64,000 bases of DNA from Octopus vulgaris (GCA_951406725.2 OX597821.1:33046001-33110000); one strand, 5' to 3'. Shown: positions 15,400 to 62,225, numbered from the stretch's first letter. Program-made: numbers and translations. The notes: generated by a model not told the origin, from the letters alone.

Positions 15400-15471
15400 T
15401 CCCACTGATGAAGACTGGCCTTCAGCAAATATATTTTTTTCTTGGAAATAGTTAGAAACCATGGTCTGGGA
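15400..15471 (+). ncRNA. Minimal type I hammerhead ribozyme in a small element between (TA)n tracts
   Basis: UCCCA-CUGAUGA-AGACU...AGUUA-GAAA-C-CAUG-GUC^-UGGGA; palindromic loop CAUG. Confidence 0.8.
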
Positions 15472-15776
15472 AATAATTGAGATGATAAACGTTTTTAATT
15501 TTCATTCCTTTCGAGAATTTATCCTTAATTGGTGGTTTGAGTTTTCTACTGCTCTTTCTAGTACAAGGCTTTCCTATTTGGAAGCCTCTTGTATTTCTAT
15601 GTATGTCTCTCTCTCTATATATATATATATGTGTGTGTGTGTGTGTGTGTGTGTGTGTGTGTGTATAACTTATATGTATTAATATTCTATACATACGTAT
15701 GTAATGTATGTATTATGTATGTATGTATTATGTATGTATGAATGTAGAGAGGGAATAGAATTGCGAAAGTACTTAC

Positions 15777-15825
15777 GGTATAAGTCGCTACTTTCCGATG
15801 TTACACCCTCTGCTAGTCTCTCTAC
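15777..15825 (-). CDS. PEBP-like protein A, coding exon 3
   Basis: cttttcag|GTA...TAC C|gtaagt, 49 nt, phase 0-1. Encodes VERLAEGVTSESSDLY(P), positionally equivalent to GADLKKGKIQGQELS(A) of PEBP4, and supplies the phase required by exon 4. Confidence 0.8.
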
Positions 15826-16272
15826 CTGAAAAGATTACCAGCTTACTGCATATATACAAGTCACATAATATAATTATATCTACATTTGTCTGTGTATATG
15901 TATGCGTAAATGCATGCGTGAGTGTGTGCGTGTGCGTGTGCGTGTCTGTGTGTGTGTCTGGGTGTGTATGTGTAACTGTATGTCGTTATAAGAAAAGCAT
16001 AGAAAAAATGTAAAATGAGATTATATATATACATACATATATATATATATGTATGTATGTATACTTACATACATATATCATCACATTCATTCATATATAT
16101 ATGTGTGTATATACATATATATATATATATATATATAATGTGTGTATACATATATATATACATATATATATATATATATATATATATATATATATATATA
16201 TATATATATATATATATATATATATATATATAATATGTGTGTATACATATATATACATATATATATATATAA

Positions 16273-17400
16273 CTTAGAATAACCTATTCGGTCATATAGT
16301 AATATAATAAATAAATAAAATATATGCATATATACATACATATATGTACATACTTACATCTACATGTATATATACATGCATATATATATATATATATATA
16401 TATATATATATATATATGAGTACAGGACACCACAAATAAACGTAGAACACAACGAGAGACGAGAACATAAAATCAAACAAGGAAACGGACTTTTTTTAAA
16501 CAACGAAAAAACAGAGTACAGGACAAACAATACAAGGAAAATTCCCCTTCATCAGCTGTCCCCTGGTTCGACTCAAAGTATGTTTCGAAGGTAAGGACAG
16601 AACACAGTCGAAGCAGTCCTTCCTGCAAAAGGAATTAAATAAAATTCTTTTGCAGAGGGGTAAAACAAGTGACAAAAACAGGACGTAAAAGCAATACAAA
16701 TGAAGAAAAAACAATACAAATGAAGAAAAAACAGTACAATAAAGAAACAGGACAGGACGGTGGAAAAATTAGTTAGAACGCATGTGAAAAATCGGCTTAC
16801 GAAGGACAGAGAAGTCGATCTATACTTGTTGAAGGGTGAAGCTGAAAGAAAGTTTTAGCAACCCTCTGGTCAGGAGGAGGAGGAGGTGAGAGAGAGAGAG
16901 AGAGGGGGGAAAGAAACCAGAAGGGTGAAAAATAAAGAAAGTTTTAGCAACCCTCTGGTCAGGAGGAGGAGGAGGTGAGAGAGAGAGAGAGAGGGGAGGG
17001 AAGAAACCAGAAAGGGTGAAAAAGAAGGAGAGACGAGTAGAGAGAAAGACAGACAGACAGGGAGGAAAGGTCAAAGAGTGCGCGTCGTGATGATTCAAAT
17101 TAAAACTTGAAGAGAAATAACACGTGCGTTCGGTCATATAGTAACTCTGTTTTTTCGTTGTTTAAAAAAAGTCCGTTTCCTTGTTTGATTTTATGTTCTC
17201 GTCTCTCGTTGTGTTCTACGTTTATTTGTGGTGTCCTGTACTCATATATATATATATATATATATATATATATGCATGTATATATACATGTAGATGTAAG
17301 TATGTACATATATGTATGTATATATGCTTTTATTTATTTATTATATTACTATATGACCGAACGCACGCATTATTTCTCTATTTCTCTTCTCCAAGTTTTT
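16273..17400. mobile_element. Element with about 230-bp inverted arms between (TA)n tracts (PLE-like architecture)
   Basis: About 16287-16517 is the reverse complement of about 17144-17361, including an internal (TA)n tract; about 100-bp internal tandem duplication at about 16830-17025. Confidence 0.6.
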
Positions 17401-17899
17401 ATTTATATATATATATATATATATATATATATATATATATATATATATATATACATATACATATATATACATATATATATATATACATATATATATACAT
17501 GCATGCATATATATATATATACTTCTTCTTCTTCTTCTTCTTCTTGTATGTGTGTGTGTGTATTTATGTACGTAGCCCAATCATTCCTATGAATCTTCTA
17601 ACATTTGTCTTTTGCTGGGGACAAATGTAACAAGTGAATGTTCTGGTGTTTCCCTACCCATCTTCACTACCCGTTGTTTTTACATATATTTCCTGGTGGC
17701 AGCTTTCCCCTATACCAGATAGTTTGCTATTTTCGCCCAGGACATCTTTCTTTCGCAGATACCTCTCGAACTGGATGACCAAGCTCTGACATTATTGATC
17801 CTCTGAAAATTATAACTGAGGAGAAATCCAAAGCAAACTGTACGAGAATTAGTAAAGCAGTTCGAGTTAAGTTTGCCCTTCGATCATAAAACACCTCGT

Positions 17900-59344: not shown

Positions 59345-59841
59345 TGACTTAAAATTGTATGATAGATTGCTGTCATTTCTTTCTCTCTTGCCTGTTTGTG
59401 TTTGCCTTTCAAGTGCTGTGGTTTTACTGAGGTCTCCCTTTTAGTAGAAAGAATAGCTATAACTCTTTGACTGCTATTTCTAAATTCGGTGTGTGGTGAG
59501 GCAAATCGTTGCTAAACCCTTAATATATTATATATATATATATATAGCCACTGCGCCTATATATATATATATATATATATATATATATATATATATATAT
59601 ATATATATACATATATATATATCGAGGATATGAGAAGTAATGGTGTCAAGGAGACCGAAAGGTGTCAGGTAACGCTGAGAATGGACAGGACCATAGTTAA
59701 GTTTCAGATTCGATAATGATACGAATGAGGAGCCCAACGTGGGTCCTGTATTAGCATGCATATACATAATAATTAACAGAATGAGATAAGAAAAAATCCA
59801 AGGCTGTGAATAGTTTTCAGAACATTTATATAAAGAGAAAG

Positions 59842-59887
59842 TCTTACAGCTGTTTCCGTGATATTTTATATATCCCTTCATCAGAGA
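59842..59887 (-). ncRNA. Degenerate minimal hammerhead motif
   Basis: UCU-CUGAUGA-AGGGAUAU..AUAUCACG-GAAA-C-AGCU-GUA^-AGA; short stem I, imperfect stem II, palindromic loop AGCU. The same 3' half recurs at about 29670-29690 on the minus strand. Confidence 0.6.
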
Positions 59888-61051
59888 AGGTGCGAGAAAA
59901 TGTTTAAGTAATAGTTATTGTAGAGAAGATATGAAATGCAGAAGGAAGTGAAGGAATGAAAATAGAATTGAGATATGTAGGGATATTGTATTTGCAGTTC
60001 TATTATTTACACGTTCTCCATCCGGGAATCATTGTAAATTTATTCCTGGTCATTGGTCAAACCATCCGAGGCAGTTAGTGCATCAAGACATTTGGTATTC
60101 ATCATTACGTTTTGAATTCAAATGCTACCGAGGTCAACATCACTTTTCATCTTTGCGAGGTCAATTAAATGAGTACCATTTGAACACTGGGGGCGATGTA
60201 ATCGACTTCCCCTCTCCCCTAAAATTACTGGCCTTGTGCCAAAATTTGAAATTAGTCAAATGAAGCAAAAAAAAATTTTAAATAATTATCGAAATTCTTC
60301 ATCAAATCTATCAGATTTTTATTCCTTTGTAGTTCAACCTCAAATGAATCTTCAAAATCATCGTCATCGTTGCAAGAAACATTAGATAGATTAGCTTTTC
60401 TAAACACATTCTTTCAGAATATTTGGAATATTTTCTCGATTCAGTTCTCGAATAAAACTTTGACATCCTTTTCTTTTCTAGGCACAAGGCTCGAAATTTG
60501 GGGGGAGAGGGCCAGTCGATTAGATCGACCCCAATACACAACTGGTACTTAATTTATCGACGCCGAAGGAATGAAAGGCGAAGTTGACCTCGGCGGAATT
60601 TGAACTCAGAACATAACGGCAGACGAAATAGGCCTACGCATTTTCCCCGGCGTGCTAACGTTTCTGCCAGATCGCCGCCTTCGAATATAACCTTAATATC
60701 AGCAGATATCAATTTACTCCCGGTAGATGTAGAGTACTTTGTTTTAAAAATTCCAATATTAATTGGTTCCGGTGCTGAAACAATATTATGAGCAGCATTA
60801 AGTTCATTGTCTAAAAAGTGGTAGGTTTTTACCGCGTATTAGACAACTTTTGCAATGCAGCTTTTAAAAAGCAAAAATAGTTCAAGCATGGCAAATAAAT
60901 TATTCTATCACTGGTTAACTGTAAGTTATGATGACGATCTTCTTTAATATATCTCTGGGGTACATTTTTTTTTTCTTTTTTGTTGTTGGAGACTGCGGAA
61001 ATGAACTGACAATGTGCTCACTTTTTTAATGACATTGTCAATATTTAAATT

Positions 61052-61481
61052 AGATCTTTTCGGTTTGAACGGCAGTTTTTAACATAACTTCTAGATAACT
61101 AGAAAAATTTTAACTTCGTATACTGGTAGAATGTGTTTATAAAACATCTTTTTCTCTTGGCTTTATTGAGAAAATTCTATAGTTTGTAAGATATTTGTTG
61201 TTGTTTTTCTTCAATTTCTGCAATTTCAACCAATCAGTAACGTCTATTGAAGTAAAAGAAAAAAACATTCTGTGCCGTATGAATATGTCACTCGTTTAAA
61301 GAAACAGATTGGGTTTATTTACATTTGTGAAGAAAAAAGATACCCTTCCCCCCAACCCTAACCCTAACCCTAACCTTAAAACAGATTGAAATGCAATAGA
61401 TTGATACTAGGGTCATAATTATGGGTGACAATTTCATATGACACCGCTAGAAAAAAACTGCCGTTCAAACCGAAAAGATCG
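61052..61481. mobile_element. Same MITE family
   Basis: Both TIRs; flanking duplication atttaaatt. Confidence 0.9.
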
Positions 61482-61968
61482 ATTTAAATTTTCTTAGGTG
61501 GTAAGTTCTATGGTAGGAGCTATTTCATTGTGTTTAGTGTGCAGCAAATTACAATTATTAACCATATTCATTACTACAGAATCTACATTTCGATAATCAG
61601 CCTCAAATGTATTTTGGAACTCATCGTCATCGTTGCAAGAATCATTAGATAAATTAGCTTTGTAGTAATGAACATCACAAACAGCCAAAAAAAGTCCATG
61701 TGCTTAATATACTTGATACTTTCAATCAAAATGACACAACCGAATTTAACCATGATACATGCTTCATCAGTTACGAACGTCACCAATTTTTTTTTTAAAC
61801 TCCCGACTAAATTCTGAAGTTTTGTTTCTAAAACCTCCAGAAACCTTCACAAATTTCAGTCATTCTTAAATTCTGGAATTTACTAAATGAATGCAAATTT
61901 GTATTCAAATATTTGCGATTCTGAAACGTATATTCATCTAAAGAAATACTTGATATACCAGACTCTGT

Positions 61969-62225
61969 TCTATATTTAAGATATGAGGAATTATGTACTT
62001 CATGTACATTATTTACATTCGACGGATATTTGTCCTCATCTTGTTTGTCGTTAACACAACGTTTCAGCTGATATACCTTCCAGTCTTTATCATGTGCCTT
62101 GGGGAAATTTCGAACACAGGTTCAAAATTTCCCCAAGATACCTGATAAAGGCCAGAGGGTATGTCAGCCGAAACGGTGTGTTAACAACAAACAAGATGAG
62201 GACAAATATCCGTCAATTGTAAATA
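61969..62225. mobile_element. Fold-back element with 14-bp TSD and decayed HHR motifs
   Basis: TSD ataccagactctgt at 61955-61968 and 62226-62239; arms about 62009-62115 and 62120-62227. Arms carry (C)UGAUAA-AGRC...CAGCYGAAACG. Confidence 0.7.

Follow-up and report, generated by a model that had tools for sequence, protein, structure and literature searches.

Putative Type I Hammerheads with a Long Helix II on Probable Penelope-Like Element 3′ Ends and in a Retrozyme-Type Array of Octopus vulgaris

We analyzed a 64,000-nucleotide (nt) stretch of repeat-rich animal DNA with 36% GC from Octopus vulgaris (GCA_951406725.2 OX597821.1:33046001-33110000; hereafter the window, with positions counted from its first letter) that contains numerous hammerhead ribozyme motifs. 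We put at roughly three in four the probability that these motifs are type I hammerheads carried on the 3′ ends of Penelope-like elements (PLEs) and in a retrozyme-type array, that the fold-backs in which many of them lie are by-products of insertion, and that cutting takes place in dimers. One hammerhead is in the 3′ untranslated region (UTR) of a PLE, five are in an array homologous to it, and the rest are likely on 3′-end fragments of related elements. Most of this pattern is expected PLE biology: a palindromic helix III, dimer cleavage, many families, opposite-strand pairs, one-sided tails, and targeting of TA dinucleotide runs, (TA)n, are all published features of PLEs. What looks new is the long helix II, together with the failure of Rfam to match it, and a stem I that has been swapped while its pairing was kept.

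Results and Discussion

Both strands of the window were scanned for the order CUGANGA-helix II-GAAA-helix III-UH with a stem I of at least 3 base pairs (bp). This structural scan returned 11 distinct complete cores, at 15405, 37103, 39142, 39675, 40208, 40741, 57114, and 59260 on the plus strand and at 38277, 56781, and 59073 on the minus strand. Dinucleotide shuffles (n = 200, 1-kb blocks) contain a mean of 0.095 cores (maximum 2), and 0.015 (maximum 1) when the palindrome is included, so that the motif density exceeds that of shuffled sequence. An earlier reading made from the sequence alone (the sequence-only reading) had called hammerhead cores here and had described their stem III loops as palindromic. 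Both points are borne out, with a palindromic 8-nt helix III of the form AC-N4-GU in 11/11 cores and by palindromes in 14 of the 20 GAAAC-N4-GUH words in the window. The loops that it had named recur at its sites, with CAUG at 15455, AAUU at 37156, in the array, and at 56716/57179, GUAC at 59006/59327, and AGCU at 59856 and 29685. With each fold-back or array counted once there are nine elements, and the hammerheads fall into six families with four loop palindromes, each of which has a chance of 1/16 if random. AAUU is common to three of the six families, those of the 37.1-kb PLE, the array, and the 57-kb fold-back.

The order of CUGANGA, GAAA, and UH is that of type I hammerheads, and the predicted folds form helix II hairpins and a stem I of 5-7 bp with differing sequences. 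A weak-stemmed core at 59884 (minus) is a twelfth motif. It corresponds to the core that the sequence-only reading had placed at 59842, which is present with only three stem I pairs and a mismatched helix II base and fails the scan filter; its active fold is predicted to be unfavorable, at +1.0 versus −11 kcal/mol for the minimum free energy (MFE) fold. The same reading needs correction on the element at 62050/62140, in which the cores of both arms are altered (AUGAUAA and CUGAUAA, with the right arm lacking U16.1) and which lies not in (TA)n but between 14-bp direct repeats. Its half copies at 29685 and 41723 are without CUGANGA; the latter copy is unverified because a similar GAAAC-AU-GUH word sits inside the array unit without a core. 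None of 29685, 41723, and the 62-kb arms qualifies as a core.

Its description of the motifs as minimal does not hold. In five families helix II is 43-60 nt long and forms a multi-loop hairpin, with fold z-scores of −3.8, −2.1, and −2.4 in the young families and −0.1 and −1.0 in the decayed ones. Our comparison set was the best 78 of 475 Hydra-type PLE loci from metagenome contigs, 57 of which have at least 300 nt of room downstream; a downstream hammerhead was found in 45 of the 78, with a helix II of 10-30 nt, and 44 of these could be parsed. One of these loci (L056), with its hammerhead behind a Hydra endonuclease and 171 nt past the match, has the same 8-nt helix III as 59856/29685 and a helix II of 10 nt. 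The long helix II is the likely reason that the Rfam hammerhead models miss the motifs, giving no match at gathering score in the whole window and, for the segments 36.9-42 kb and 56.4-62.4 kb, nothing even at E ≤ 10. Rfam microRNA matches in the window were rejected as fold-backs and TA runs. A shared 3′-terminal hairpin reaches z ≤ −2.9 at only 3 of 11 ends and is not claimed.

The 35.1-37.3-kb element, which the sequence-only reading missed, is by its encoded motifs the remnant of a 5′-truncated Hydra-clade PLE. It lacks the part of the reverse transcriptase (RT) that has the RWK and DKT motifs and runs, with stop codons and a frameshift inside, from the RT thumb region through a CxC-X5-C linker (CSCRNKKLC) to a GIY-YIG-type endonuclease (CGLC..E and N...CPH) and a stop at 36078. 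The CxCX5C linker, the CxxC and CxH motifs flanking conserved E and N, and the C-terminal position of the endonuclease are those that define the Hydra clade; together with the absence of CCHH they are the same as in Hydra-1_Obim from Octopus (PMC8557442), with which 57 of 81 residues in one stretch are identical (counted by eye). That element also shares the hammerhead near the 3′ end, the (TA)n target, the inverted 5′-truncated copies, and the tails, whereas the 3′ UTR here, at ∼1.2 kb, is much longer than in its consensus. A Naiad origin was rejected because the endonuclease of the remnant lies C-terminal. The open reading frame (ORF) has 3675 relatives at E ≤ 0.001; a protein word search returned no relative of near length and one longer relative, and none was found among viral contigs. 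The PLE fragments had no informative Pfam match; that to a bacterial toxin family (E 0.045) is below the cut-off and was taken as chance. The hammerhead of this element would cut 131 nt before the element ends at 37298, and a TA tract begins at 37299. Near the start of the PLE lies the second copy of a local duplication (∼30400-30539/34900-35040), of which 41 bp are identical and the upstream similarity was judged by eye.

Inside this TA tract, 37584-40964 is occupied by ∼2.2 minus-strand and 4.2 plus-strand copies of a 533-bp unit. The array is a young, live-looking repeat of the non-LTR (long terminal repeat) retrozyme type. Five of its six hammerhead cores are intact, four of them in tandem on one strand; its GC content is 0.32, and the longest stop-to-stop frames in the units are 96-102 amino acids (aa). 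The unit is homologous to the PLE 3′ end (z 12.8), with 74% identity upstream of the core, 80% in the core, and 85% downstream, and it aligns weakly with the 56.7/57.1-kb family (z 4.0-5.5). The statement in the sequence-only reading that flanks are otherwise unrelated is therefore wrong for the AAUU group. Its proposal that the motifs mark PLE derivatives gains support from the ORF remnant and the array homology for the 37.1-kb PLE and the array, and the other families are assigned to PLEs by inference. A circular 533-nt monomer is predicted to fold at −143 kcal/mol, compared with −105 ± 5 kcal/mol for 60 shuffles (z −7.4); this fold contains stem I and helix II and leaves helix III open.

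At least half of the words of the array family are found in 20 of 23 listed sequencing runs, which span 10 studies and 8 organism labels and one of which may be the source of the window itself. None of the listed runs containing the family is recorded as RNA; run X8 could be RNA by guess and is not counted as evidence of expression. Contigs, not reads, were mapped for 4 of the 23 runs, giving 104-2357 mapped contigs per run (709-2357 in genomic-type runs), and the head-to-tail joint is seen in 4/4. None of 24 common substitution sites falls in the 65 positions of the core, stem I, helix III, and paired helix II (P 0.04), and the motif itself contains three of the sites, at N7 and at two unpaired bases (P 0.01). 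This evidence is modest, since variants are lost from short contigs and the loose ends are visible only in part.

Several smaller features of the array were recorded. Loose ends at 39651, 39673, and 39696 (runs X5, X8, and X9) belong to related subfamilies with a different sequence just before the core, that is, with other 5′ stem I arms, and some of them resemble the sequence upstream of the 37.1-kb PLE hammerhead. At position 39500 in run X9, two contigs exit the unit into a TA run ∼290 nt past the cut site, which is a third 3′ end point. The inversion junction (38746/38747) lies inside the AAUU palindrome of the left-arm helix III, with a 2-nt overlap. The innermost plus-strand unit carries the family majority base in the helix II loop (39175) and the other three carry the minor base (39710, 40243, and 40776), hinting at a mixed template or an assembly error. 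Run X1 has a palindromic loose end of ∼20 nt at 39755-39760 and 39867, which we take to be a library linker rather than genomic sequence.

The sequence-only reading had also noted a preference for (TA)n and the presence of fold-backs, and both are evident. A (TA)5 or longer run lies within 300 nt downstream of a cut site in 8/9 elements (background 0.165, P ∼4e-6), and a fold-back arm ends within 20 nt of a TA tract in 4/5 cases (background 0.031); the second test is the less circular, as the ends of the solo elements were placed by eye using the tracts. At 37.6-41.0, 56.5-57.2, 58.7-59.5, and 62.0-62.2 kb the 3′ ends point outward and one arm overruns the other by 60, ∼120, 105, and 39 nt, respectively; none of these four has symmetric terminal inverted repeats. 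Inverted 5′-truncated copies with a one-sided tail of 30-40 bp have been described for Hydra PLEs, as has the (TA)n insertion habit of almost all Hydra families (Craig 2021, PMC8557442), and opposite-strand hammerhead pairs 100-700 bp apart, with many families per genome, were reported earlier (Cervera 2014, PMC4209133). A reconstituted PLE protein cuts and extends both strands of AT-rich DNA and starts at two internal RNA sites, which define the tail (Frangieh 2024, PMC11167929).

These observations fit the following scheme, whose insertion steps draw on published PLE biology. The PLE protein would nick (TA)n on both strands, and reverse transcription would start at internal sites 35-290 nt past the hammerhead, and the outcome would be 5′ truncation, an inverted copy on the 5′ side, and a tail at one end only; the fold-backs would be by-products of such insertions. 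A lone 2-bp helix III would be too weak, and two same-strand copies in a tandem transcript would instead pair their 8-nt palindromes and swap stem I arms. The paired copies would cut out 533-nt monomers, which would circularize, and the circle, as a self-paired RNA, would undergo no further cutting and could template multi-unit insertions. Partner choice would need a fit of both stem I and helix III. Transcripts through a fold-back are predicted to be 77-94% paired, with one sense and one antisense motif; as the two hammerheads are on opposite strands, they are not partners within one transcript and are not dimer substrates.

A core of the double hammerhead is built from both copies, one supplying the 5′ stem I arm and the other the cut site together with the 3′ arm; by this topology, both stem I helices are intermolecular, as is helix III. 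Homodimers are predicted to be 11-17 kcal/mol better than two active monomers, whereas forming helix III in the monomer gains nothing and costs +1.4 to +1.9 kcal/mol. Among 15 heterologous pairs, only array × 57-kb is predicted to beat two MFE monomers (−2.4 kcal/mol). Of the 17 distinct helix III sequences of 10 nt in the other Hydra loci, 16 allow positions 4 and 7 to pair; a lone hairpin could not use this pair, which indicates that a dimer-only pairing has been kept. Self-complementarity of helix III, not family uniqueness, is the conserved trait. The families are predicted to be mostly insulated from one another, most simply as a by-product of divergence with compensatory change rather than through a loop label.

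The self-complementary loop had been read from the sequence as a family-specific dimerization code. The self-complementarity is supported, and had been noted for palindromic helix III in 2011 (Perreault, PMC3088659) and 2014 (Cervera, PMC4209133); the family specificity is not. A palindromic loop III private to each family, under selection to confine activation to matching loops, seems to us very unlikely. The occurrence of four palindromes among six families would suit such a code, as would the gap between matched 8-nt duplexes (−6.4 to −11.2 kcal/mol) and mismatched ones (−2.2 to +0.2 kcal/mol), the helix III of the array family without a common variant, and the 15.4 × 37.1 kb pair, in which stem I fits (6 and 4 bp) and the mismatched loop is predicted to make the heterodimer unfavorable (+4.8 kcal/mol). 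However, three families share AAUU, and therefore the loop does not label families, and it is stem I, with 0 and 1 bp, that separates the PLE from the array (predicted heterodimer +1.8 kcal/mol). One helix III is common to 5/14 Hydra magnipapillata families, two of which also fit in stem I (our count from File S2 of Craig 2021, PMC8557442), and ACAG-NN-CUGU recurs in 24/44 metagenome Hydra hammerheads. Among pairs of different families from the same assembly, which may hold more than one host, 18/32 cross-pair in helix III as well as they self-pair, 12 of these being blocked by stem I and 6 fitting fully. Unrelated palindromes would in any case be expected to mismatch without selection. We also weighed whether selection against cross-cutting drives rapid change of stem I, rather than of loop III, between a helper PLE and its non-autonomous derivative, which we regard as unlikely. 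Between the 37.1-kb PLE and the array, 11/14 stem I bases differ with all 7 pairs kept (binomial P ∼2e-4 at 30% divergence) while the flanks are 74-85% identical, and relatives with at least three further 5′ stem I arms, visible on the 5′ side only, occur among the loose ends. Stem I arms remain compatible in all six same-assembly Hydra pairs whose endonuclease DNA is 69-76% identical, so the present lineage stands out. Yet this is one pair only, and the PLE copy is decayed (4/7 stem I pairs are G-U) and need not be the helper of the array; the array and the 57-kb family are predicted to be partly cross-active, with 7 and 5 bp in stem I and −4.9 kcal/mol; and recombination or neutral compensatory drift would suffice. 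The stem I swap could thus reflect insulation, recombination, or drift. The full proposal that an octopus Hydra PLE/retrozyme lineage uses undescribed long-helix-II hammerheads, insulated by a two-part key of helix III and stem I, with stem I actively replaced between helper and parasite, is accordingly a speculative one to which we assign a low probability.

Cleavage as a monomer, with the long helix II replacing a loop-loop contact or binding a protein and with an inherited, incidental palindrome, is unlikely. In its favor are clones of coral and mussel retrozymes that cleave in the course of transcription, the well-structured helix II of the young families, and the protein assistance of the anole PLE hammerhead (Frangieh 2024, PMC11167929). 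Against it stand the perfect palindromes of all four loop types, the predicted cost of helix III in the monomer, and the dimer-only pairing kept in other Hydra elements. We find it very improbable that the motifs are passengers on fold-backs that arose as assembly chimeras or as class II miniature inverted-repeat elements. TA is also the target of Tc1/mariner elements, and the array arms are 100% complementary over 567 nt, with an inversion that the mapped contigs do not support; but the arms of the other fold-backs are 85-99% alike, every fold-back has outward 3′ ends and unequal ends with 39-120-nt tails, as published for PLEs, and the array unit is homologous to a PLE 3′ end.

Returning to PLE-borne hammerheads that cut as dimers, several points weigh against this explanation. 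Neither tertiary contacts nor proteins enter the predicted energies. The invertebrate type of hammerhead is described as having a helix III of 2 bp with a tetraloop (PMC7229834), and a coral retrozyme cleaves efficiently as a monomer, which makes dimer dependence uncertain; of the Xenopus retrozyme dimers, 1/9 cleaved in vitro. In one reconstituted PLE system the hammerhead is dispensable for insertion (Frangieh 2024, PMC11167929). The 37096, 59842, and 62-kb motifs look decayed, and relative to MFE monomers the homodimers of the first two are predicted at +1.0 and +8.1 kcal/mol, respectively. A PLE ORF is linked to 2/6 families, the 37.1-kb PLE and the homologous array, and no open frame appears when the inner parts of the 56.8-, 59.1-, and 59.9-kb elements are read in all six frames. 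Finally, no strand-switch joint for the array inversion at 38746/38747 appears among the mapped contigs of the 4 runs.

Retrozymes have been published as non-autonomous PLE derivatives, and the array resembles non-LTR retrozymes (PMC7229834; preprint 10.64898/2026.07.22.740005) in its low GC content, its tandem units with one type I hammerhead each, the lack of a long ORF, a highly self-paired predicted circle, and homology to a PLE terminal repeat. Its 533-bp unit exceeds the 170-400 nt of the former source and falls within the 51-972 bp of the latter, and it differs from known retrozymes in its long helix II, its inverted arm, and its insertion in (TA)n beside a related PLE. The passages of the 2020 retrozyme paper considered here (PMC7229834) do not mention octopus or cephalopods, and the passages used from an octopus repeat annotation (PMC13282606) describe recently active Penelope-like families with no mention of ribozymes. 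The dimer-acting hammerheads of PLEs and satellites (PMC4209133, PMC3088659) have the same short helix III with a palindromic loop, many families per genome, and opposite-strand pairs, and the minimal type that they represent is matched by the 62-kb element; in them helix II has 4-8 bp and a short loop, whereas it is long here, and the passages used from these two papers do not discuss specificity between families. Hydra hammerheads (PMC8557442) have a helix II of ∼10-26 nt and a helix III of 9-10 nt, compared with 43-60 nt and an 8-nt perfect palindrome here. The same source lists a PLE hammerhead of spike moss whose loop 2 is 34 nt long, as well as Naiad "half cores" spaced by 35-50 nt (Craig 2021, PMC8557442), and in its supplement five short helix III words of the window are absent, a result that line breaks could mask. 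The literature searched holds no account of the long-helix-II form or of octopus retrozymes, although long-helix-II or cephalopod motifs may be listed in the supplementary files of the two hammerhead papers (2014 and 2020) and the preprint. Nor does it treat family-to-family discrimination by dimer-acting hammerheads, on which Lunse 2017 may bear.

Rfam misses a hammerhead form that is seemingly very abundant in this animal group, and ribozyme counts there are therefore probably too low. A Hydra PLE end beside a young retrozyme array of the same lineage supports the view that retrozymes of animals other than vertebrates arose from PLEs. With loop and stem I each matched or unmatched, the six natural motifs form a ready panel for studying dimer discrimination; a two-part key, if true, would amount to self/non-self recognition among retroelement RNAs by base pairing alone.

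Table 1. Hammerhead-bearing and related elements of the window
Feature	Position	Strand	Remarks
Solo 3′-end fragment	15300..15605	+	(TA)n on both sides, terminal hairpin; element ends set by eye
Type I hammerhead of solo fragment	15400-15471	+	Helix III ACCAUGGU; helix II 43 nt with imperfect base; cut after 15466
5′-truncated fragment with half hammerhead	29484..29695	-	GAAAC-AGCU-GUA without CUGANGA; ends in (TA)n; similarity to 59.8-kb element weak (z 2.1)
Broken C-terminal ORF of 5′-truncated Hydra-clade PLE	35090..36078	+	5′ boundary approximate
3′ UTR of 35-kb PLE	36079..37298	+	Terminal hairpin; adjoins TA tract 37299-37583
Type I hammerhead in PLE 3′ UTR	37096-37174	+	CUGACGA; helix II 46 nt; ACAAUUGU; cut after 37167
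Left (inverted) arm of 533-bp array	37584..38746	-	∼2.2 units; core 38277 intact, cut 38208; outer hammerhead copy lacks core G8
Right arm of 533-bp retrozyme-type array	38747..40964	+	∼4.2 units; cores 39142, 39675, 40208, 40741 intact; helix II 51 nt, ACAAUUGU, stem I 7 bp; cut-to-cut monomers identical (n = 3); reaches (TA)n at a unit position 60 nt beyond that of the left-arm end
Short fold-back	41672..41808	.	Possible half hammerhead GAAACAUGUC on minus strand at 41723; no core; unverified
Fold-back, 3′ ends outward	56549..57224	.	Arms 56663-56802 / 57092-57232 (95%); cores 56781 (minus), 57114 (plus); helix II 58 nt, ACAAUUGU; left arm ∼120 nt longer; (TA)n at both ends
Second copy (95%) of sequence upstream of 59.8-kb hammerhead	57686..57790	+	Ends in decayed core CUAAUGA
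Fold-back	58704..59524	.	Arms 58809-59113 / 59220-59524 (99%); cores 59073 (minus), 59260 (plus); helix II 60 nt, ACGUACGU; left arm 105 nt longer; (TA)n at both ends
Fragment ending in (TA)n	59623..59980	-	Weak hammerhead 59842-59887; helix II 21 nt, ACAGCUGU, stem I 3 bp
Old fold-back	61955..62239	.	Arms 62008-62227 (85%), decayed minimal-type hammerheads in both; left tail 39 nt; 14-bp direct repeats 61955-61968 and 62226-62239

Other Features of the Window

An exon for the N-terminus of a TACO1/YebC-family protein lies at 55582-55470 on the minus strand (Pfam PF20772, E 2.7e-6, below the cut-off). The elements at 15-42 kb, which are downstream of it, may be intronic; no further TACO1 exons were found with short motifs. 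A 3′ fragment of another non-LTR retroelement, with a 277-aa frame and a C-terminal C2H2-like motif, occupies 57790-58650 and starts exactly after a decayed hammerhead core of the 59.8-kb family; we take it to be RTE-like. Two related 3′ fragments of a further ORF resembling that of a long interspersed element (LINE) are present in opposite orientation at 43600-44016 (+) and 55111-55509 (-). Dispersed families resembling short interspersed elements (SINEs; D11, D13, and D16-D20), with 4-10 copies, extend over 10398-61257, and some of them end in hammerhead-hosting TA tracts (for example, 57271-57525).

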